A DNA stretch of 45,244 nt from a virus (lineage: Duplodnaviria > Caudoviricetes), in the IMG/VR virus record IMGVR_UViG_3300023283_000169, positions 1 to 45,244 of that record, one strand, 5' to 3'. A model generated the notes under the pieces. The model was not told the origin of the DNA and ran no database searches. It worked only from the letters and a program-made list of their open reading frames with translations. Positions 4,711 to 45,244 of this stretch are shown here, one piece after another. The stretch's first letter is position 1; every line of letters starts with the position of its first letter. The translations under genes were made by a program, and so were the position numbers.

Positions 4711-4748
4711 GGCTGTTCAGGCGTCTCGCATCCTGCTACATTCTCATC

Positions 4749-4994: not shown

Positions 4995-5061
4995 TCCCCA
5001 CCTGTGTAGCTGGCCCGGCGAAACAGCTCGCGACGTCCACGAAAAAATCTTGCGTAGCCCC

Positions 5062-5090
5062 TTGACACGTATCGCATAATGCAATAAGAT
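5062..5090 (+). promoter_or_regulatory. Sigma70-type promoter P1 with operator TATCGCA-TAA-TGCAATA
   Basis: TTGACA-17 nt-TAAGAT; palindrome 5070-5086. Confidence 0.85.
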
Positions 5091-5135
5091 GATACTATGA
5101 GAGTTCAATCAACAACCGAAACGCGGGAGGACGAA

Positions 5136-5480
5136 ATGAGCGACTCGACGATCAAGGACCTCAAGACGACCCTGACGATCCATGACCTCACGGTCAACGA
5201 GATCAAGCGGGTCTACTCCGGGAGGCCAGGATGCGGGTGTGGGTGCCGGGGAAAGTACTACGACGACGGGCCGATGTTCGCGAAGACGCTTCGGATCCTG
5301 CAGGAGCGGGCCGACGAGATGGAGGAGCCGGGGGGCTTCGGCGACGAGGTCTGCTTCGCGATCGAGGACGAGACCCGGTACCGGTGGTTGTACACCACGA
5401 AGCAGGCGTTACTGCGCCGAGAGAGGGAAGTCCTGGTAGCGCGGATCGCCGAGATCGACGAAGCGGCCGAGCAGCAGTAG
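5136..5480 (+). CDS. Early hypothetical protein with SGRPGCGCGCRGKY motif
   Basis: First gene after P1; AACGCGGGAGG leader/RBS. Confidence 0.8.
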   Translation: MSDSTIKDLKTTLTIHDLTVNEIKRVYSGRPGCGCGCRGKYYDDGPMFAKTLRILQERADEMEEPGGFGDEVCFAIEDETRYRWLYTTKQALLRREREVLVARIAEIDEAAEQQ

Positions 5481-5511
5481 GGCGACACGAACCCAAGCGC
5501 GGGAGTGAACG

Positions 5512-5883
5512 ATGAGCCAGACGAAGGAAGAGGCATTGATAGCGATCGATGTCGCGATCGAGGAGGCCGAGGAAGAGATCGCAGACTTTGCCGACCGGTT
5601 GGCGAGGTCCGAGAACCCGCTGTACGAGATGAAGTGGTCGAACAACGTGTTCGAGGCGGCGGCGAATCTCGACGTGCTACGGCGTTTCCGGAAGGTCGTA
5701 GAGAAGAAGGGGATCGAGGAGGCGCGACTGCACGCGGCGAGATACGCGCTTAGGCACTCGCGTGACGTGGGCGGCTCGTCGAACAGCGTGATCAACCTCG
5801 CCGAGGTGCGGGTCATGGAAGCGACGGGTCGGTTCGCCATGCCCTACGGTTCGGTCGAGCCGTGGGAAGCCCTGACCGGGTAG
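5512..5883 (+). CDS. Early hypothetical protein
   Basis: RBS present; helical, typical codon pattern. Confidence 0.75.
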   Translation: MSQTKEEALIAIDVAIEEAEEEIADFADRLARSENPLYEMKWSNNVFEAAANLDVLRRFRKVVEKKGIEEARLHAARYALRHSRDVGGSSNSVINLAEVRVMEATGRFAMPYGSVEPWEALTG

Positions 5884-5939
5884 CCGGTCGACGAGGAGCC
5901 GCGGGCTAGGCCCGCTGTTCCGTAACGCGGGAGAGAAGA

Positions 5940-6296
5940 ATGGAAGAGACGAGCGGGGCGCCAGGGATCCACGAGGTCATCGGAGCGATCGACCTCGGAG
6001 CATACGACGAGCACGTGGAGAGCCTGTACGCCGCACTGAAAAGGGTGACGCAGAGGCAGAAACGGGAAGCGATGGAAGGCGTGGCGGTGGGCGACCGGGT
6101 GAAGTTCGACGCCGGCACGAGGGGCACACGCTACGGCGTGGTGGAGAAAGTCATGCAAGTGAACGTGTCGGTTCGGGAGGTGGGCTCCGTGGGGGGTGGA
6201 AGGGTGAGGGTCGGCATGACCTGGAGGGTGCCGGCGATGCTTCTAGAAGAGGTCGACGCAGACGAGTGGAGCCGGATCGTCAAGGAGGAGCGATGA
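5940..6296 (+). CDS. Early hypothetical protein, SH3/KOW-like C-terminus
   Basis: VGDRVKF...GVVEKV..VNVSV...WRVPA.LLE pattern. Confidence 0.7.
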   Translation: MEETSGAPGIHEVIGAIDLGAYDEHVESLYAALKRVTQRQKREAMEGVAVGDRVKFDAGTRGTRYGVVEKVMQVNVSVREVGSVGGGRVRVGMTWRVPAMLLEEVDADEWSRIVKEER

Positions 6297-6709
6297 AGAC
6301 GCACGAGGACCGAAGGAAAGAGCTGCAGGGGGTAGCAAACAGTCCGGGCCTGCGGGGGTTCTCGGACTGGTTGCGCTCGAAAGGGTCGACCATCCCCAGA
6401 GGTATGATCGGGTCGGCACAAGGGTGCCCGATGACGAAGTGGCTCCAGAGCGAGGGTCTGGACGTCAGGGAAGTCTGGTACGACGAGGTCGTGTTCGAGG
6501 ACGGCGAGAAGGTGTCGTGGGACGAGATCAGCGTTCCTGTGGGGGACGCCCCGATCCAGAGCATGGCCTCATTCCAGGACCGCGTGGTGGACCGTTTCAC
6601 GAGGCTGTTCGAGATCGCCGAGGGTCACGGTTCGCCCGGGCGGTGGCTTCGGGAGGCGCTGTGGATCGAGGTCGAATGTGAGAACGCATGGCAGAGGAGG
6701 GGGCGATGA
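6293..6709 (+). CDS. Early hypothetical protein
   Basis: AGGAGGAG RBS; ATGA overlaps on both sides. Confidence 0.75.
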   Translation: MKTHEDRRKELQGVANSPGLRGFSDWLRSKGSTIPRGMIGSAQGCPMTKWLQSEGLDVREVWYDEVVFEDGEKVSWDEISVPVGDAPIQSMASFQDRVVDRFTRLFEIAEGHGSPGRWLREALWIEVECENAWQRRGR

Positions 6710-7359
6710 GCAGCACCGTGGGGATCGACATGGCTCGGGAGGGGCCGCGCGGGTGCGGCTGGAGGAGCGCCGGTCAGGAAGGGGTCGGCATCTACCTGAT
6801 GGGCGGACTGCTGGCGGAGCCGTGCGAACGGCTCCCGTTCCCGCTCCACGAGTGCCGGACGTGCGGCGGGGGAATCAAGCCCTCGCGGGGCTGGACGTGG
6901 ATCGAGCCTGACGAGCTGTTCCGGGGAGGGTAGCATCCAAGATGCGACCCGAACGCATTCCCAGGACACGACTGCAACCGGTGCCACATGTGCTGGCCCC
7001 CGACCGGCCGGCACGGGCTGGTCTGGGTCGGGTCGTCGCACTACCCGACCCCCGAGTCTTTCGCCGAGGAGGCCCGCAGGATGGAGATCAGCCGGAAGGT
7101 CGCGGCGTTGCCACGAGGACTGGAGATCGGCGAGACGGTGGTGTACGTCGGCCACCGCGAGTGCAGGATCGAGAACGGAGAGATCGGGCCCGGCGTATTC
7201 ACGGCCTACAAGCCGTCGCGGGTAGACCTGGTGGTCGAGGTGGAGGATCCGGCCGACTTGCCCGCGTACGCCCTGTGGCTCAAGGGCCGGATCGGTGAGC
7301 ACGCCCGGCTCGTGAAGGTCGAGCGAGTCGGCGAGACCGTAGAGATGGACCTGGATTGA
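6706..7359 (+). pseudogene. Cys-rich phage protein interrupted by in-frame TAG at 6931-6933 (pseudogene, readthrough or error)
   Basis: ORFs 6688-6933 and 6988-7359 share a frame and read ...FRGG*HPRCDPNAFPGHDCNRCHMCW... continuously. Confidence 0.7.
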
Positions 7360-7385
7360 CAGAACGGGGGGCGATGGTGTATGTT
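7356..7385 (+). promoter_or_regulatory. Sigma70-type promoter without the operator, upstream of a non-coding region
   Basis: TTGACA (7356)-18 nt-TATGTT (7380). Confidence 0.55.
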
Positions 7386-7391
7386 CCGTCC

Positions 7392-7480
7392 GGCTCCGAG
7401 TTCGGAGACGGACCGGAGTTCATCGTTCCTCACAGGGGTCGGCTTGCTTCCCGCGTTGCGAGTCGGCCCCGCCTTATTTC
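7392..7480 (+). ncRNA. Candidate antisense small RNA
   Basis: 5' hairpin 7394-7407; CATCGTTCCTC 7421-7431; 13-bp stem 7435-7447/7458-7470 with three G.U pairs and loop TTCCCGCGTT; T-rich tail. Confidence 0.5.
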
Positions 7481-7983
7481 AGCTCCTCTCCCGCCCGATC
7501 GGCCCCCGACCCATACACCACCCTTCCCCGCCACGAGCGCGGCCCCCACAGCGAGGCTCTGTTCCCCACGGGACCGCTTCCGGAGCGGCCCCATCCCCAT
7601 ACTTGCCGTCCCGGAGGTCGTGAGTTATTTCTCTCGTGCCCCAAACGCGGGAGTTGGGACACCGTTCTCCTCGCGGCACGTGACGCCGTGCGAACCGACT
7701 CAACGGGATTGGCGACAGCTCCACCGAGAACAAGAATCCGGGCTCTGCTGGGGAGCAACCCGGTGCGACCCCGGTGGAGTCTTCGGCTCTGGACTCGGAG
7801 AGGACCAGGGGTGGCCCCGACACCGCGGGCCACAGAAAAAGGGGAAGCGCGGGCCGGCCGAACGATTGGCGATCCAGTAGGCCTTGCCGCGCTTCCCCAG
7901 GTGGTGCTAGCGTCTTCACCGCTCCGGTGACGACCCTCCGAATATACAGGGTCGCCTAAACCCCCGCCACGTCTCCGCGAAGT

Positions 7984-8038
7984 TTTTCCACAGCCACCCA
8001 CAGTGAATCCACAAAGAGGGCAAGCGGGCGCGTCCACA
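7984..8038 (+). promoter_or_regulatory. DnaA-box-like cluster (candidate origin element)
   Basis: TTTTCCACA (7984-7992) fits TTWTNCACA; CCACA cores at 7988, 7998, 8009, 8034. Confidence 0.35.
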
Positions 8039-8044
8039 AGCGCC

Positions 8045-8073
8045 TTGACGCGCCTCGCAGAATGCGATAAGAT
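8045..8073 (+). promoter_or_regulatory. Promoter P2 with operator CCTCGCA-GAA-TGCGATA
   Basis: TTGACG-17 nt-TAAGAT. Confidence 0.85.
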
Positions 8074-8118
8074 CATACCATGGAAGCACAGCGAGCAAAC
8101 CGAACGCGGGAGGACAAA

Positions 8119-8337
8119 ATGCCCAACACACCGACCATCCCGGTCGAGCTCGTCGTCGAGCGGATCCACGAGCGGGCCAGGGACCCGGCCATCTCCGAAC
8201 CGCAGCGGTGGGCGCTCGAAACCGCCATCGCAATCATCGAGGCCGAGAAACTCGACCCGGAACAGCTACTCCGGTGCTTCTTCGAGCTCGCCGAGGGGTT
8301 CGAGCGGGCTGGCGACATCATCCACCGGGCCTCCTAG
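8119..8337 (+). CDS. Early hypothetical protein
   Basis: AACGCGGGAGG RBS after P2. Confidence 0.75.
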   Translation: MPNTPTIPVELVVERIHERARDPAISEPQRWALETAIAIIEAEKLDPEQLLRCFFELAEGFERAGDIIHRAS

Positions 8338-8383
8338 CGGGGCCCTCCACCGGCGGACCACCGCCGGAACACGAGGAGGAACG

Positions 8384-8578
8384 ATGAGCGGGACGACGGA
8401 AATCGACGCCACGCAAGCCGACGAGTCGTGCCCAGTCTGCGGATCGCGGCTATACGTGGAAGAAGCGTTCACGATCGACGCCTTCCACGAGGAGTGGGTT
8501 TACGGATGTACGGGGTGTGGCCGCTGGTTCGTGCAGGTCGTCTCGGACGAGGGGGCGTCCGAGCTGCGGGGTCAGTAG
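8384..8578 (+). CDS. Small Zn-ribbon protein
   Basis: GAGGAGGAACGATG start; CPVC...CTGC. Confidence 0.75.
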   Translation: MSGTTEIDATQADESCPVCGSRLYVEEAFTIDAFHEEWVYGCTGCGRWFVQVVSDEGASELRGQ

Positions 8579-8607
8579 AGGCCCGGCGGAGACGTAGGTC
8601 CGGTCCC

Positions 8608-8636
8608 TTGACTTCTATCGCAGAATGCGATAAGAT
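8608..8636 (+). promoter_or_regulatory. Promoter P3 with perfect operator TATCGCA-GAA-TGCGATA
   Basis: TTGACT-17 nt-TAAGAT; 32-nt core identical to P4. Confidence 0.9.
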
Positions 8637-8684
8637 GGAATCATGATGGACGAACAGAACACCAACCGAAACGCGGGAGGAGCG

Positions 8685-8918
8685 ATGGAAAAGCAGACCG
8701 TGACGTTCCGGGGTCGGACGTTCGAGGTGCCGAGCCTGAGAGCGGACGACTTCATTCGGGAGCGCGTGCTGGATCCGAACGGGTCCGACATCGACGCGAT
8801 GTTCGTGACGCTGGACGGGCTCGCGGAGCAGGAGGGCTGGTCGAGAGCCGAGCGCGGCGCGATGCTGAACGTGCTCGACGAGAAACTCCCCGACTGGCTC
8901 GCGGTCGTCGGCGACTGA
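8685..8918 (+). CDS. Early hypothetical protein
   Basis: AACGCGGGAGGAG RBS after P3. Confidence 0.75.
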   Translation: MEKQTVTFRGRTFEVPSLRADDFIRERVLDPNGSDIDAMFVTLDGLAEQEGWSRAERGAMLNVLDEKLPDWLAVVGD

Positions 8919-9124
8919 TGGACGGGCGCACGTTCTACCCGTTCCCACGCGGCTACGACGTCCGGGGGCTCGCGAAGCGGTTGAGCGCGATGTTCCCGGC
9001 GGAGTCGGTCGTGTACGGGTCGACACACCACAGCATAATCCTGAAAGCGGACGCGCCGGACCAGCTCGTCCGGCGCGTGGTGCGGGCCCGCCGCGAGGCC
9101 CGAGAAATGGAGGCGCACGGATGA
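8918..9124 (+). CDS. Hypothetical protein
   Basis: TGATG coupling with upstream gene. Confidence 0.7.
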   Translation: MDGRTFYPFPRGYDVRGLAKRLSAMFPAESVVYGSTHHSIILKADAPDQLVRRVVRARREAREMEAHG

Positions 9125-9312
9125 CACGACTCAAGGAGTACGAGCGATGGGAGCCAGCCGAGGAGACCGACGGCGAGCCCTTGATATGTCTACGGTGCGG
9201 GAAGCAAACCGAGGCTCTGATCTGCGATCCAACGGGCGGGCCCGAGATGGTCCTGGGGGAGAGGTGCCGACCGTGCGGGTGGGTCATTCGCTTCGACGGA
9301 GAGGGGGAGTAG
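9121..9312 (+). CDS. Small Zn-ribbon protein
   Basis: CLRC...CRPC; ATGA overlap. Confidence 0.7.
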   Translation: MTRLKEYERWEPAEETDGEPLICLRCGKQTEALICDPTGGPEMVLGERCRPCGWVIRFDGEGE

Positions 9313-9314
9313 AC

Positions 9315-9527
9315 GTGGCGAGAGGGATGCACGCCTCGATCACCGAGGACCGCGTGGTGGACGCGGTGGAGCGCGGGATGTTCGGGCTGGACAACCCAGG
9401 GTTCTGCCTGGCCTGCGGTGAGGAGCAGGGCGGGTGCGAGCCGGACGCCAGGTACTACGAGTGCGAGGGGTGCGGGGAGCGTCAGGTCTTCGGAGCCGAG
9501 GAGGTCCTCCTCATGGTTGCGGTCTGA
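9315..9527 (+). CDS. Small Zn-ribbon protein
   Basis: GFCLACG...EPDA..YECEGCG. Confidence 0.75.
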   Translation: MARGMHASITEDRVVDAVERGMFGLDNPGFCLACGEEQGGCEPDARYYECEGCGERQVFGAEEVLLMVAV

Positions 9528-9569
9528 GCGGGGGGTACGGGGCGCCGCGAAACCACCTTTCCTCCACCC

Positions 9570-9598
9570 TTGACTTCTATCGCAGAATGCGATAAGAT
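9570..9598 (+). promoter_or_regulatory. Promoter P4 with perfect operator
   Basis: TTGACT-17 nt-TAAGAT; TATCGCA-GAA-TGCGATA at 9578-9594. Confidence 0.9.
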
Positions 9599-11583: not shown

Positions 11584-11854
11584 TCCGGGGGCGATCCTAG
11601 AGCGCTGGCGTTCGTGGCTCACGCGGATGCTCCGGCGCGACGACCCCCCCACCCCACCACCACCCCACCCGGAGGGGGAAACAGAGCCCCACGCCTATCT
11701 CTCGACCCTCACGTGCGAGTATTGCGGGGCCCTCGTCCCCCAACGGGAGGCTGGATACGTACGCGGGTACTACGGAGAGCTGCATGTGACGTGCCGGTCT
11801 GGCCCGACTGGACATAGTGTTGCACCTTGCGATAGATTGAAGCCAAGGAGGTAG
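11576..11854 (+). CDS. Hypothetical Pro-rich/Zn-binding protein (start uncertain)
   Basis: CEYC...H.TC; fills the gap between flanking genes. Confidence 0.5.
   Translation: MGDPGAILERWRSWLTRMLRRDDPPTPPPPHPEGETEPHAYLSTLTCEYCGALVPQREAGYVRGYYGELHVTCRSGPTGHSVAPCDRLKPRR
11809..11838 (+). promoter_or_regulatory. Promoter with degenerate operator upstream of HTH gene
   Basis: TGGACA-18 nt-TAGATT with TGTTGCA-CCT-TGCGATA. Confidence 0.6.
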
Positions 11855-11855
11855 T

Positions 11856-12101
11856 ATGGGAGAAACCGAAAGCAACGGACTCGGGGAGCGCATCGATCGC
11901 GTGTACATGGTCCTGCACGATGTCGACGACCCGAACGGCAGCAGAACGTGGTTTGCCGGAGAGGCGGAGACGACCTACAGCACGGTCTGGCGGTGGGTGC
12001 GCGGGGAGGTGGAGCCGAACGCGCTGGCGATGCGGCTGCTCGATCGCCTGGAGAAAAAGGCCGACCGCAAGCTGGCGAGGCAGAAGAAAGCGGAATCGTG
12101 A
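11856..12101 (+). CDS. Cro/XRE-like helix-turn-helix regulator
   Basis: SRTWFAGEAETTYSTVWRWVRGEVEP HTH pattern; AGGAGG RBS. Confidence 0.75.
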   Translation: MGETESNGLGERIDRVYMVLHDVDDPNGSRTWFAGEAETTYSTVWRWVRGEVEPNALAMRLLDRLEKKADRKLARQKKAES

Positions 12102-15476: not shown

Positions 15477-15716
15477 ATGAAGGTCTGCACTTTCGTGAAC
15501 AGCGTACGATGCACGGCGGTGGAGAGGCTGTTTTTCGGGGGCGTGGTGATCACGTTCGAAGACAGCCGGGGCGAGGAGTACTCGCTTTTCCCGCCCCCCA
15601 ACGCTCCACGGCCCAGGGTTGGGGAGGACTATCGCCTCATCCTGACGAACGACGACGGCTTGATCCAGAGGCTGCCCGAAGAGGAGGGGCGACCGATGAG
15701 CGGGGCCGCGCGGTGA
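15477..15716 (+). CDS. Hypothetical protein
   Basis: GGAGG RBS. Confidence 0.65.
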   Translation: MKVCTFVNSVRCTAVERLFFGGVVITFEDSRGEEYSLFPPPNAPRPRVGEDYRLILTNDDGLIQRLPEEEGRPMSGAAR

Positions 15717-15994
15717 GCCCGTCACCGTGGGTCGAGCTCCCGACGGAGCTCAAGGCGATTGTGTTGATCGGGCTGGCGATGGTATTTGGCGCGGTGATCG
15801 CGGGAATCTTTGGTGTGGTGCGAAGGGTGGGGGCCGCACGTTGGATTGCATGCCACCTACCACGAGAGGTCGTCTACTGGTGCCTGGTCCGGGCCGGGGT
15901 CCATGCCAGCACGGGTCGGTGGAGGGAACAGGTTGTTCCGGAGCTGACGCTACACGAGACGATGGAACGGTGGGAGGGGCTCGACGATGAGTGA
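15713..15994 (+). CDS. Small membrane protein
   Basis: One TM (AIVLIGLAMVFGAVIAGIFGVV); GTGA overlap. Confidence 0.65.
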   Translation: MSPSPWVELPTELKAIVLIGLAMVFGAVIAGIFGVVRRVGAARWIACHLPREVVYWCLVRAGVHASTGRWREQVVPELTLHETMERWEGLDDE

Positions 15995-16229
15995 CGACCG
16001 GCTGGAAAAGGTCGAGATCGGGTTCGTGACCTTCTCTCTCTCCCCCTATGGCGACAGGAAGTACAAGGCGACCGTCTGGCCGACCGCTGCTTCCGCGAGG
16101 AGGTATGGAAAACCATTTCGGCTCGCAGTCTCTCTGCCACCAGACGCCCTGGATGAACAGCCCGCCCCAGAGGATCTTGAATACCGTCTTGAACGCGTTG
16201 TGTTCGAGGGGGCCGACGATGAGGAGTAA
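15987..16229 (+). CDS. Hypothetical protein
   Basis: Overlaps upstream stop; GGAGG RBS. Confidence 0.65.
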   Translation: MSDDRLEKVEIGFVTFSLSPYGDRKYKATVWPTAASARRYGKPFRLAVSLPPDALDEQPAPEDLEYRLERVVFEGADDEE

Positions 16230-16261
16230 CGCGATCCCGATGGAGGAGGAAAGGAGGCAGC

Positions 16262-16639
16262 ATGGGTACTGATCTGATTCTGACGCGACGCACGTTCGTG
16301 GGCGGAATGCTGGCAGCGATCGGGTCGCAGGCGATCGACTCACGGGTGGTCCGGTCGATCGGGGGCGCGACGGACAGCGTGGTCCGACCCGTGGCAAACC
16401 GCAAGGATCCGGGAAGCGGCCTGTGGGTCATCGATGGCCACGTGCGAGACATGAGCCTGAGAACGGACCCCGTCGACATCACAACCCGCGACTCGGACTG
16501 GCGAGAGTGGATTCCGGGGCTGGCGAGCATCGAGCTCCGGTTCATTCCCGTGGGCGAGATCATGATGGACATGAACACAATCGAGGAGTGGGCAGCAGCG
16601 GGCCACCCCGCGTCCCTCGTGCTCGGGAAGTGGAGGTAG
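16262..16639 (+). CDS. Twin-arginine-signal-like protein with tail-tube-like segment
   Basis: TRRTFVGG followed by hydrophobic stretch; DPVDITTRDSDWREWIPGL. Confidence 0.7.
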   Translation: MGTDLILTRRTFVGGMLAAIGSQAIDSRVVRSIGGATDSVVRPVANRKDPGSGLWVIDGHVRDMSLRTDPVDITTRDSDWREWIPGLASIELRFIPVGEIMMDMNTIEEWAAAGHPASLVLGKWR

Positions 16640-16651
16640 GGGCACGAAAGC

Positions 16652-16829
16652 AAGCCGAAGTTCTAGATATATCCGAAGGTCTTGAGCGAGCCGAACGCGA
16701 CCAGATGCCCAGATCCGCTGAGCGAGCCGAGAGCCCTTGACCTGTATCGCAACGCGCGACATGTTCAGAGAACGGGACATCCCACGAGGGGACGAGCCGA
16801 CGTAGACGAGGTGCCCATAGCGAACGAGC
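16652..16829 (+). ncRNA. Upstream TIGR-like mini-array (units 16652-16687, 16688-16723, 16794-16829; degenerate 70 nt between)
   Basis: Same 5-9-9-9-4 unit as main array, e.g. gagcc gacgtagac gaggtgccc atagcgaac gagc. Confidence 0.8.
16737..16765 (+). promoter_or_regulatory. Promoter/operator upstream of tas gene
   Basis: cccTTGACC-17 nt-CATGTT with TATCGCA-ACG-CGCGACA; same geometry as P1-P4. Confidence 0.6.
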
Positions 16830-16851
16830 GCAACTCAACCGAGGAGGAACG

Positions 16852-17781
16852 ATGACGGAAAACGCGGAAACGACGACGACCACAGCCTCCAGCCATCTGC
16901 GGTGGCTGGCCGACAACTACGAGCAGAACCAGCGCATGAGGATCCAGGCCGGGGAGCGCATCCGGGCCGTGATCCAGGGACGGGACACCGACCGCGTTGA
17001 CGTGGACGAAGACGAGATCGATGTGGACTCGATCCTCAAGATGATCGTCGAGGGCTCGACGAACGGGGCGACAGCCTACGTCCCCGCGTTCCTGACACGA
17101 TCCTACCGCCTCCACCACGGGGAAGAGCGGGCTTCGTACCGCGACATGATCGTCGCGGTGAAAGACCACCCCGCGTGGCCGTGGCTGGAGAAGGTAAAGG
17201 GGATCGGCCCGACGATGGCGTGCAAGATCCTGTCGAGGCTCGACCTCGATCGGGCAGAATACGCGTCGTCGTTCTGGTCGTACTGCGGCCTGGGCACCGT
17301 ACCCGCCAACAAGTACCGCTGCTCCGAGTGCGGAAGGTCGCGGTCGTTCCCCGTCCGGTACAAGGTGACCGGGAAGCACACGACGCCCGAGGGGGCGAAG
17401 TGTCCAGAGACGATGGAGCTGGTGGCGGGCCCGGACGACGGGGTGCGGTGCGCCCAGCCGCGACCGTCGGCGGGGCAGAAGTCGACGTACGACCAGTACG
17501 CGAAGAAGACCATCTACCTGATCGGAACGCAGTTCCTGAAAGCGAAGGGCGCCTACGCGGACTTCTACCATCGCGAGCGCGAGAAGTACGACGAGAGCCG
17601 GCCCGGGTGGGACAAGGGGAGGAAGCACCTCTCCGCGCTCAGGAAGACGGAAAAGCTATTCCTGTCGCACCTGTACGAGGTGTGGTGCGAGGCGACGGGT
17701 CGGGAGCCCGCGAAGCCGTGGATCGAGGAGTTCGGTAGCGAGGGCCACACGATCATCGACCCCTGGGACATGGTGGGGTAG
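16852..17781 (+). CDS. tasA: TIGR-associated (Tas) Nop-domain protein, TasA-like (IS110/Nop RNA-binding fold, no visible RuvC/HNH), with Zn-ribbon insertion
   Basis: Coiled-coil N-terminus; HP.WPWLEKVKGIGP...KILS; SSFWSYCGL; H..ALRK..KLFLSHLY.VW; no DEDD N-terminal domain; directly abuts the 36-nt array. Confidence 0.85.
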   Translation: MTENAETTTTTASSHLRWLADNYEQNQRMRIQAGERIRAVIQGRDTDRVDVDEDEIDVDSILKMIVEGSTNGATAYVPAFLTRSYRLHHGEERASYRDMIVAVKDHPAWPWLEKVKGIGPTMACKILSRLDLDRAEYASSFWSYCGLGTVPANKYRCSECGRSRSFPVRYKVTGKHTTPEGAKCPETMELVAGPDDGVRCAQPRPSAGQKSTYDQYAKKTIYLIGTQFLKAKGAYADFYHREREKYDESRPGWDKGRKHLSALRKTEKLFLSHLYEVWCEATGREPAKPWIEEFGSEGHTIIDPWDMVG

Positions 17782-18862
17782 AGCCAGCGGCGTCGAGATA
17801 ACCGCATCCGGCAAGCGAGCCGTTGTTCAGGAGGCCCCCGATTCGGCAGAGCGAGCTGCAGCCAACGAGGTACCCCGAGGAGCTGAGTGAGCCGACAGTA
17901 CGGATGTAACTGGTGACGAGAAGCAAGCTGATCGGATCAAGGTAACCGTGGAGCGGGAGGGAGCCGTGGCAAGAAAGGTGACCGACACGACCGAGCGAGC
18001 CGCGGCCCAGAAGATACCCGTGTCCGAGAAGCGAGCCGTCGAATGTGACGTACCCGTCAGTGCAGAGTGAGCTGGGGTGGGACCGGTATCCGAGGGACCA
18101 GAGCGAGCCGAGAGAAACGAGACGACCGTCCGAACGAGGTGAGCCGGGATTGATGAAGTGCCCGATCCACCAGAGCGAGCCGCTGCGCCCGAGGTAACCG
18201 GCCCGCGCAAGCGAGTCGCAAGAACCGAGGTATCCGTTGCAGTCGATCGAGCCGAAAATGAGCAGGCGCCCGTACTCGAAAAGCGAGCCGAAGGAACAGA
18301 TGTGTCCGCTAAAAACGATCGAGCCGCGCCAGTGGAGGTATCCGGCTCGCGGAAGCGAGCCGCCGTCAACGACGTGTCCGAGGAGTTCGATCGAACCGTC
18401 CGTCCGGGAGGTGACGGAAAGTGCAGAGTGAGCCGTGAGTCCCGATGTAACCAGGCAAGGCGAGCGAGCCGAGGGCGGCGATATAACCACGCCACTTGAG
18501 CGAGCCGAGGCATGGTGAAGTGCCCAAAGAAGGAGAGCGAGCTGCCGAATGTCAGGTGACCGTCGGAAAAGAGCGAGCCGGACGATCTGAAGTGGCCGAG
18601 ACTTCAGAGCGAGCCGGAAGTTTTGAGGTGACCGAGAGAGCCGATCGAGCCGTTGGCAAAGACATGACCGTTCCAGAGAAGCGAGACGCGCTCCATGAGG
18701 TGACCGGAGTCCCGGATCGAGTCGCACCTGACAACATACCCGTTGATCCTGAACGAGCCGAAGTTCTCAAGATGACCGCAGGGGTCGAGTGAACCGTGAT
18801 GCACGAGGTACCTGTACGAGTCGAGCGATCCGTCACCAGCAAGGCGCCCGAAGCAACCGAGT
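17781..18862 (+). ncRNA. TIGR (tandem interspaced guide RNA) array, 30 units
   Basis: Parsed by hand: 28 units of 36 nt and 2 of 37 nt; consensus GAGCC-[G+N8]-RANRTRNCC-[G+N8]-RAGC; spacer pairs all different. Confidence 0.9.
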
Positions 18863-18897
18863 AAACGAAAACCCAGGAGCCGAGAAAGGTGGGAGAG

Positions 18898-19134
18898 ATG
18901 GACAGCAAGGAGTCCGGCTTGATAGTAGCGGTCCTGATCGGGGTCATCACCGCGATCGCCGTAGTTGCGGTGACGTTGCTGGTCCGCGAACCGAAAAACA
19001 GTTGCGACGCTCTCGTCACCGCCGTGGCCGAGTCTCCCGCCGACTACTCGCCGGCCCTCATCTCCACGATGCTCGACGGGCTGGGGTGCGAGGAGACCAG
19101 CAACGAATACGCCAACGAGGAGAGGCGACGATGA
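18898..19134 (+). CDS. Small single-TM protein downstream of array
   Basis: GGGAG RBS; hydrophobic LIVAVLIGVITAIAVVAVTLLV; two Cys. Confidence 0.75.
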   Translation: MDSKESGLIVAVLIGVITAIAVVAVTLLVREPKNSCDALVTAVAESPADYSPALISTMLDGLGCEETSNEYANEERRR

Positions 19135-19376
19135 ACGATGGAAGAATCGACGGACCAGCTCTGCTCTCCTAACTGATCGAGCGAAAGCGGGAATGCGAGG
19201 CGGCGATCATGCAGGAGCTGGAGCCGCTGCTCGAAGAGTTTATGGACGACACGGGGGTCGGGATCGCGCGGGTCGAGGTCAGGATGAAAGACGTGACCAG
19301 CCACGAAGATCCATGGATCAGGACCGCCCTGGACAGCATCTCGATCCGCCTGACGGCGTCGCCACTGTACGAGTAG
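19131..19376 (+). pseudogene. Hypothetical gene interrupted by in-frame TAA at 19170-19172
   Basis: ATGA-coupled start; reads MNDGRIDGPALLS*LIERKRECEAAIMQELE...PLYE; an internal ATG at 19209 is an alternative start. Confidence 0.55.
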
Positions 19377-19381
19377 CGGGC

Positions 19382-19410
19382 TTGCGCCTCATTGCAACGT
19401 GCGACAGATT
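19382..19410 (+). promoter_or_regulatory. Promoter with degenerate operator
   Basis: TTGCGC-17 nt-CAGATT with CATTGCA-ACG-TGCGACA. Confidence 0.5.
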
Positions 19411-19496
19411 GCGGGGACGGGGAACGAGGAGTCGATCGCCAACGCGGGTACACGAGAAGACAGCCAGTCGAAAAAACCGGTACCCAGGAGGTGTTC

Positions 19497-19826
19497 GTGG
19501 GCGAGACGAAAGGGATCGACCCGGAGGAATGGCGCCGATCGATGACCGCGCAGCAGCTCGTAGAGTTGAAAGCTGCGGTGAAGAACAGGCTAGGCGTACT
19601 CCAGAAGCTACGCAAGAAGCTGGGAGACGAGGGGTGCAAGACGTCGGACGTGAACCGCAGGATCGCGCTGCTCGACTCGACCGACGAGGACGCCGAACCG
19701 TTCGCCAGTGGGATCGGGCTGTCCCAGATCCTCGATGACCAGATCGACGCCTTCGCGACCGGGTGGGAAGCGGCGGAAGCGACACGGGAACCGGCGGACG
19801 ACAGAGAAGACGACGAGGACGGGTGA
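19497..19826 (+). CDS. Hypothetical helical protein
   Basis: AGGAGG RBS before GTG 19497. Confidence 0.65.
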   Translation: MGETKGIDPEEWRRSMTAQQLVELKAAVKNRLGVLQKLRKKLGDEGCKTSDVNRRIALLDSTDEDAEPFASGIGLSQILDDQIDAFATGWEAAEATREPADDREDDEDG

Positions 19827-20305
19827 CGAAAGCCTCACGCGGCGCCTCCAACGAAAAGATCGCCCTACATCACCCCTCACCCATCACGGAGACGAAAAAG
19901 CCCCACGTAGCCGTCTCTGCCGCCACAGGTCCCGTCATAGCACAGCTTCTCATCCCCTGGGACGTCCTGGTAAGCGACAACGAGCGAACGACGATGCGCG
20001 GGCCCGTCCCGGTCCGCTCCAAGGCATACGTCAGGGGGAAAAGGTGGATCGTGGGTCACGGGCGGTCGATCATGGGCGCCGAGCCGCCGATCGAGGAGCC
20101 TGTTCACGTCGAGATGAGGTTCTTCCCGCCCGACGCCAGGTCGAGGGATCCGCAGAATCTCGTGAAGCAGGTGCTGGACGGGATCAAGGGCGTGCTGGTG
20201 GCCGATGACGACTGGAAGCACGTGCGGAGCTGGCGCGGAGTGACGGTCGAGGTTGACCGCGACGAGCCCCGGCTGGAGCTGGAGATTCGAGAGTTCGGGG
20301 GCTGA
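19823..20305 (+). CDS. rusA: RusA-like Holliday junction resolvase
   Basis: RDPQNLVKQVLDGIKGVLVADDD motif; C-terminal PRLELEI. Confidence 0.85.
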   Translation: MTKASRGASNEKIALHHPSPITETKKPHVAVSAATGPVIAQLLIPWDVLVSDNERTTMRGPVPVRSKAYVRGKRWIVGHGRSIMGAEPPIEEPVHVEMRFFPPDARSRDPQNLVKQVLDGIKGVLVADDDWKHVRSWRGVTVEVDRDEPRLELEIREFGG

Positions 20306-44755: not shown

Positions 44756-45132
44756 GGTACGAGCGCGTCGAGATCTACGCCGTGAACGTCTGGAGGGCGG
44801 TCGACGTGTTTCTCAACGCTGCGACCTGGGGCGATCGTGGTCAGACGATCAGCGGGAGAGTCGGGGAGAAGGCAAGGCGGGGTCGCCTCTGGGCGAGGGC
44901 CCTGGATCGACTGTTCCTCGGGCACTTCTCGACGACCGTAGAGGAGTCGAGAGGGAAGCAGATCTACGTGTCTTCGCTGGCCGTGTTCTTCGGAGGGGTG
45001 GCGATCCTCGTGGCGGGATACGCCGCCCTGCACTGGCCGGGCGTGACGATGATCGGGTTGATCCTGTATCTCGGCGCCATGTTCGCGGTCGTCGTGGGCG
45101 CCCTGATTCGGAGAGGAGGGAAGTTGCCGTGA
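44752..45132 (+). CDS. Lysis-region membrane protein
   Basis: D..LN....G....TISGR.G motif plus two C-terminal TMs. Confidence 0.7.
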   Translation: MRYERVEIYAVNVWRAVDVFLNAATWGDRGQTISGRVGEKARRGRLWARALDRLFLGHFSTTVEESRGKQIYVSSLAVFFGGVAILVAGYAALHWPGVTMIGLILYLGAMFAVVVGALIRRGGKLP

Positions 45133-45244
45133 GGATCCTGGAGTTCCTGGCGCCCTACCTGCTCGTCGCGTCGATCGGGGCCGTGGTGTCGGGGCAGATT
45201 GTTCACGATTGTGCCCAGGAGGACCACGCCGACGAGATGGTCAA
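45118..45244. repeat. Terminal direct repeat, right copy
   Basis: Identical to 1-127. Confidence 0.95.

Follow-up and report, generated by a model that had tools for sequence, protein, structure and literature searches.

Dual-repeat TIGR-TasA systems are the closest described relatives of the locus that we report here; they, and the other published systems with which we compare it, are cited from partial texts of the papers concerned. Faure et al. 2025 (PMC12045711) describe arrays that lie upstream and/or downstream of tas and that have truncated terminal edges; Xu et al. 2026 (10.64898/2026.09.09.750476) describe arrays on both sides of tas, and TasA as a repressor. The latter authors note that sequence alone has not settled whether tas and the guides share a transcript, and they call for start-site mapping. 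Autoregulation is mentioned in neither partial text; that of Xu et al. is also silent on untranslated regions and on the ribosome, and in that of Faure et al. promoters appear only for constructs. Our literature search, with most subscription journals outside it, returned no report of a native promoter inside a TIGR array, and none of control of tas by a leader unit.

The locus lies in a phage genome (the window, i.e., the whole 45,244-nt stretch of DNA that was analysed) and is of this already known TIGR-TasA kind. As in the published dual-repeat systems (PMC12045711, 10.64898/2026.09.09.750476), a solo Nop-domain protein is accompanied by 36-nt units with the order edge, spacer, loop, spacer; arrays flank tas on both sides, the edge at an array end is truncated, and a phage genome carries the system. 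Unlike those systems, the upstream array contains a member of this phage's own promoter/operator family, the boxes are CCG/AG rather than CCA/UG, and the protein has a zinc-finger-like insertion and a processing loop with W/H, not Y/H. A single genome shows the variant in which a promoter lies within the array. The features are collected in Table 1.

Table 1. Coordinates of the tasA locus and of related promoter/operator sites in the window
Feature	Position	Strand	Remarks
Span with four clean promoter family members (5062, 8045, 8608, 9570)	5062-9598	+	repeat finder, promoter scan
Promoter-like site with operator copy (11818-11834) and Cro/XRE-like HTH gene (11856-12101, 81 aa)	11809-12101	+	candidate cognate regulator
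First edge repeat and unit U1	16649-16688 (unit 16653-16688)	+	24.2 bits
Unit U2, intact, then full edge repeat (16721-16729)	unit 16689-16724	+	22.6 bits
Gap between U2 and U3	16725-16794	+	70 nt; edge remnants at each end, promoter/operator within
Sigma70-type promoter-like site	16737-16765	+	-35 TTGACC (16737-16742), 17-nt spacing, -10 CATGTT (16760-16765)
Operator-like palindrome, 17 bp	16745-16761	.	2 mismatches to TATCGCA-N3-TGCGATA; 12/14 consensus bases
Possible decayed loop repeat, weak	16775-16783	+	in 36-nt register with U1/U2; background fraction 0.025
Unit U3, in predicted tasA leader	16795-16830	+	23.5 bits; 5' edge near-complete, 3' edge truncated
tasA ribosome-binding site (RBS) GAGGAGG	16841-16847	+	10 nt past U3; ATG at 16852
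tasA	16852-17781	+	309-aa Nop-domain protein, no N-terminal nuclease, C/C/H/C insertion
Main dual-repeat TIGR array	17782-18868	+	30 units, 28 with a length of 36 nt and 2 of 37 nt; directly after tasA stop
Sibling promoter/operator-like site	19382-19422	+	closest genomic match to gap promoter, 27/40

Results

TasA and its arrays

The record has identical direct terminal repeats of 127 nt (1-127 and 45118-45244), which probably arose when a circular contig was assembled with overlapping ends, and the plus strand of the window encodes terminase, portal, head and tape measure proteins and RusA. Single-protein viral scans with TasA and with ORF 16262 found no close relative of the phage, and a GenBank phage search returned 3 distant records only. 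Four Longimicrobiales/Longimicrobiaceae MAGs, among the 7 genome loci that we retrieved, carry relatives with 47-52% identity, a hint, and no more than that, of a host in this group. The upstream-array and promoter region is covered with zero differences by a contig of run X1, which may be the source sample and is therefore not independent; the contigs of X2 and X3 stop short of the gap. Another X1 contig (167 nt, depth 2.9) shares the final part of ORF 16262 (16607-16640) and then diverges into other sequence, which weakly hints at insertion of the TIGR locus there. An Rfam search of 15500-20000 gave zero matches.

ORF 16852-17781 encodes a TasA of the dual-repeat TIGR type. The protein matches TaTasR (9MTY; E 6e-13) and TasH (E 0.0012), and its best Tas relatives are about 55% identical. 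The structural model (pLDDT 91.7, from a 70-sequence alignment) has a coiled-coil helix from residue 4, and the top ten matches in a Foldseek search are all TasH/TasR (E 1e-8 to 4e-7). Pfam detected no nuclease family, and there is no N-terminal RuvC or HNH domain. Residues Cys157, Cys160, His176 and Cys184, within a stretch (residues 157-184; 17320-17403) that we take for a zinc-finger-like insertion characteristic of this TasA clade, are invariant in 70/70 aligned relatives; zinc is not mentioned in the partial texts of PMC12045711 and 10.64898/2026.09.09.750476. In some TasA relatives (L002-L004; P0057, P0066), the N-terminal part is a PF03118 domain, known from the C-terminus of RNA polymerase alpha. 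SpTasH alone cuts its precursor by means of Tyr289 and His296, with Arg278 required (PMC13421893). In the corresponding region of our protein, Trp290 stands for Tyr289, His299 comes three residues late, and Cys279 replaces Arg278; the Trp is shared with TaTasR and 14/70 relatives, and the residue at position 279 is Cys in 6/70 and Arg in 63/70. By this analogy, precursor processing by TasA is plausible but not certain.

The downstream array alternates edge and loop repeats, separated by two 9-nt spacers per unit, with a 36-nt period; its two longer units lie at 18394-18430 and 18503-18539. Column counts place CCG and AG (box C/box D) in both edge and loop repeats; divergence of box C/D, with covariation, is allowed in TIGR repeats (PMC12045711). 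We built a unit matrix from 29 of the 30 downstream units, which themselves score 15-28 bits, except for one mis-registered 37-nt unit (-7). U1-U3 score like the units of this array (22.6-24.2 bits, versus a best score of 12.8 bits outside the locus). The three intact units of the preliminary description are thereby upheld, in a register (AGCCG-N9-loop-N9-AGCG) that is one base to the right of the one it gave. Spacers A and B of U1 (16658-16684) are 7/9 identical, so that a target of U1 would be a near-palindrome, and spacer A is also 7/9 identical to spacer A of the unit at 18756; with 12 such pairs among 62 spacers, these likenesses probably reflect chance.

A promoter and operator copy inside the upstream array

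Scored as units, the gap between U2 and U3 yields -24.9 and -13.2 bits. That an operator-bearing promoter lies in it, as had been proposed, is borne out by a promoter matrix whose training set consisted of just the four clean promoters: the site at 16737 is the top non-training site, and its 17.4 bits were reached in 1/200 simulated genomes (p about 0.005). A repeat finder, unprompted, placed the same site in one family (D4) with those four promoters. The palindrome occurs at 10 sites with at most 3 mismatches, versus 0.63 expected, and its combination with the -35 box at 5, versus 0.01; because both patterns were drawn from the very sites that are counted, we regard the held-out matrix as the fair test. 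As far as sequence can tell, the gap site is thus confirmed as a genuine copy of the phage's TTGAC plus 17-bp palindrome promoter. Its -10 box matches TATAAT at only 3/6 positions, and the site is missing from a consensus promoter scan. An A is found 7 nt past the -10 box in 7/9 aligned family sites, from which we infer a start near A16772. The gap site has two mismatches and a -10 box weaker than those of the four early promoters. In this it resembles 11818 and 19390, and the three sites would seem to form a second, weaker promoter class. Further operator-like sites at 4724, 10619 and 21278, the last of which precedes ORF 21340, have 3 mismatches and poor -35 boxes.

A palindrome between the -35 and -10 boxes usually marks a repressor site. 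Directly behind the operator copy at 11818 lies ORF 11856-12101, with its own promoter-like site and RBS. Its nearest Atlas clusters by features are HTH/XRE (0.93-0.95, some without a family), and its structural look-alikes are also HTH/XRE, at TM 0.55-0.69, all below the tool's naming bar; Pfam offers nothing at E≤1, the best match in a PDB search is HigA-2 (E 0.49), and a homologue search found none. We consider this ORF a good, though not proven, candidate for the Cro/XRE-like regulator of the operator family, to be treated as a lead only. The same promoter layout recurs in unrelated phages (10 loci, 0/10 with TIGR units); tandem copies are present in L222/L224 (contigs L058/L059) and L225, where they adjoin genes that are XRE-like by eye.

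On general properties, we liken this family to the lambdoid Cro/cI (XRE) operator-promoters: a 17-bp palindrome overlaps a sigma70-type promoter, several copies show graded match, and a small HTH gene lies behind one copy, a layout also seen in L059/L224 and L225. Unlike the lambdoid arrangement, no divergent cI gene was found in the phage, and one operator copy lies in a guide array, directed at an RNA-guided effector. The earlier suggestion that tas belongs to the phage operator regulon is well supported at the level of sequence, in that the predicted promoter and operator belong to a genome-wide family and the candidate regulator sits behind another operator copy.

With moderate confidence, we favour the following reading: a short upstream TIGR array of three units is split by a copy of the phage promoter/operator, which drives a U3-tasA-array transcript under Cro-like control. 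The gap promoter would start a single transcript near 16772 that contains U3, tasA and the 30-unit downstream array, and the predicted Cro-like protein would turn this promoter down. U1 and U2, which lie 5' of it, would depend entirely on read-through from promoters further upstream. The precursor would be cleaved by TasA to guides of 36 nt, in the manner of other dual-repeat Tas proteins. The gap promoter itself would have arrived as a cassette copied from the promoter family of the phage, in place of about one unit.

Origin of the gap

The origin that we favour, a copied cassette that replaced about one unit with decay of the next, draws on several likenesses. From -35 to +5 (40 nt), the best genomic match of the gap promoter is the sibling promoter at 19382, and its 27/40 identities were reached in 1/200 simulations; the likeness extends beyond the operator into the start region, and the bases that precede the -35 box resemble those at 5056. 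The promoter part of the gap contains no loop remnant (background fraction 0.9996). Because a unit remnant is absent from this part and 19382 is the closest likeness, a copied cassette would fit at least as well as the origin proposed in the preliminary description, in which array units were overwritten. Under overwriting, two units would have turned gradually into promoter and operator as point mutations accumulated and 2 nt were lost.

We consider overwriting rather doubtful, and the weaker of the two origins. What stands of the proposal is a loop-like 9-mer in the left register, together with the edge remnants at each end of the gap, the exact 36 nt from edge end to -10 end (16730-16765), and a gap length that differs from 72 by 2 nt. 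The length of 70 nt had been correctly given; the chance of a length so close to two units is in itself 14%. The 9-mer is the one positive among four register tests (background fractions 0.025 at 16775, 0.35, 0.89 and 0.9996), and the promoter half lacks any unit remnant. Moreover, the sibling at 19382 lies outside any array and matches past the operator to the +1 region, and to reach a 12/14 operator, a -35 box and the correct spacing by drift would take many changes. Separately, edges that lie 36 nt apart (19430 and 19466) downstream of the sibling promoter at 19382 raised the possibility of another decayed mini-array, which we rejected: its score is 3.6, and about 32 such cases are expected per simulated genome.

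Related tas loci

Relatives were gathered by protein-based scans (8 viral, 41 metagenome and 7 genome loci) and by array-pattern scans (33 and 127 loci; flanks may be short in 47 of the 127). After de-duplication, the comparison set held 109 tas genes besides that of the window, each with at least 300 nt upstream. Upstream units are present in 51/109 of these loci, and units on both sides of tas in 35/109; in 41/109, the last unit is at most 45 nt from the called tas start. This last figure is 28/52 in the largest subset, which is biased, having been chosen by a unit plus RBS pattern, and 7/37 in the protein-selected subset, an undercount in which divergent repeats were missed (L021, L022, L025). 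Of 40 loci with a unit near the tas start (window included), 30 have a last unit with a truncated 3' edge. In 14/42 loci, the sequence that best matches Shine-Dalgarno overlaps this last unit; about 8 of these cases are credible by eye, since some start calls are wrong. Given these locus counts and overlaps, we regard it as a trait of the family that a guide unit lies next to the tas RBS. In eight loci (L030, L054, L082, L103, L104, L119, L151 and L166), the tas Shine-Dalgarno sequence lies inside the last unit, formed by the end of spacer B plus the edge, 3-7 nt before the start codon; these are better cases than the window for translational feedback.

A promoter in an array gap is not such a trait: it was found in 0/48 other upstream arrays (20 irregular gaps, 32 gaps of 36-38 nt), by a test that detects only sigma70-like promoters and AGCG/AGCC-type repeats. 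In L166, a promoter match of the same score runs across regular units. IMG/VR scans for unit, edge and TTGAC/TTGMC (33 and 45 loci, overlapping) revealed no promoter-bearing gap with further units behind it; in most of these loci the motif lies inside a regular unit, and in a few, most clearly L080, right past the last edge. In L080 (1872-1960; contig shared with L259), a sigma70-like promoter begins 13 nt past the last edge, compared to 12 in the window, and no units follow. L048 (190-585) presents a promoter, a short array, a terminator-like hairpin with a T run, a second TTGACA promoter and then tas, from which its array and tas appear to be separately promoted. An 88-nt gap in the upstream array of L123 (2340-2430) looks by eye like a leftover tas C-terminus, the remnant of a tandem duplication. 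The promoter inside the upstream array has been found in one genome only and thus shows no sign of conservation.

The leader unit and possible autoregulation

Exactly one intact unit separates the predicted start from the RBS. We see some chance, although a clearly minor one, of feedback through U3: free TasA would bind this unit of the tasA message and then stay by the RBS or alter the 5' end, so lowering tasA translation; guides from the downstream array would compete for TasA and match the protein to guide supply. This mode of control is compatible with the transcript that we propose. SpTasH processes its precursor unaided (PMC13421893), for intragenic guides it has been suggested that maturation and Tas translation are linked (10.64898/2026.09.09.750476), and the Shine-Dalgarno overlaps in relatives point the same way. 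The RBS begins 10 nt past U3, however, and a cut at either edge would leave it on the message; for repression, TasA would thus have to remain on the leader and crowd the ribosome. The truncated 3' edge of U3 could prevent release and may thus favour such retention: minimal arrays needed full edges for processing (PMC12045711). On the other hand, arrays normally end in a truncated 3' edge (PMC12045711), the adjacency of unit and RBS may reflect genome compaction, and the fold of the leader is unremarkable compared to shuffles (z +0.35 to +1.4). The engineered 5' UTR insulator based on Csy4 (Cas6f) likewise places the site of a guide-maturing enzyme 5' of an RBS, and there the cutting insulates rather than represses (PMC8601185). 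Unlike the insulator, the layout here is natural, with the enzyme encoded on the same message and processing predicted. Since edge cuts would leave the RBS on the message, U3 is most likely the ordinary last unit of the upstream array.

Other readings of the locus

It is also conceivable, but improbable, that the gap promoter is weak or dead and that the whole locus is read from upstream (e.g., from 11809), the operator being a relic or a roadblock. The weak -10 box would fit, as would the position of the first edge, 10 nt past the stop codon of the upstream gene; terminator-like sites are absent from the plus strand between 8274 and 22000, and thus from 11809 to the array. However, a decaying promoter would not have retained the -35 box, the 17-nt spacing, A2 and T6 of the -10 box and the +1 purine, all of which are in their places here.

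Finally, the locus resembles CRISPR regulatory mini-arrays (CreA/CreR, crRNA-like RNAs) in having a short array 5' of the effector gene, by its promoter. Those mini-arrays can regulate through partial pairing (10.1101/2023.03.10.532045, 10.1101/2023.03.03.530964), and nuclease-free TasA proteins repress transcription (10.64898/2026.09.09.750476), but it is very improbable that TasA is brought to the DNA of the tas promoter in this manner by a guide from the upstream array: U1, U2 and U3 match 10, 10 and 11 of 18 positions in the promoter region, compared to 9-12 for 28 downstream guides, and among 31 guides none has a genomic site better than 3 mismatches, with shuffled controls alike. No spacer shows the partial complementarity to the effector promoter that typifies CreR, and, unlike in CreA/CreR mini-arrays, the units are intact rather than degenerate. 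Self-targeting as such was also rejected: in a scan of 31/33 guides (all except those of the 37-nt units), which covered both geometries and gaps of 0-2, the best sites have 3-5 mismatches, as they do for 248 shuffled guides.

Discussion

The promoter copy likely ties TIGR-TasA to the gene-control circuit of the phage. The precisely predicted start, the candidate regulator encoded by the phage and the leader with its one unit make both the timing and the self-control of TasA testable. We entertain, as a long shot, a circuit of two layers: the Cro-type operator promoter in the array would time tasA during the infection cycle and split the guides into two expression classes, and the leader unit would let free TasA clamp its message, so matching protein to guide supply. 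If TasA is under an early/middle switch of the phage, this would point to a role during infection. Self-regulation through a leader unit such as U3 is possible at the level of the family; if true, it would be family-wide, because many tas RBSs lie beside or inside a last unit, and control of translation by that unit would be a new mode of feedback for box C/D-type guide systems.
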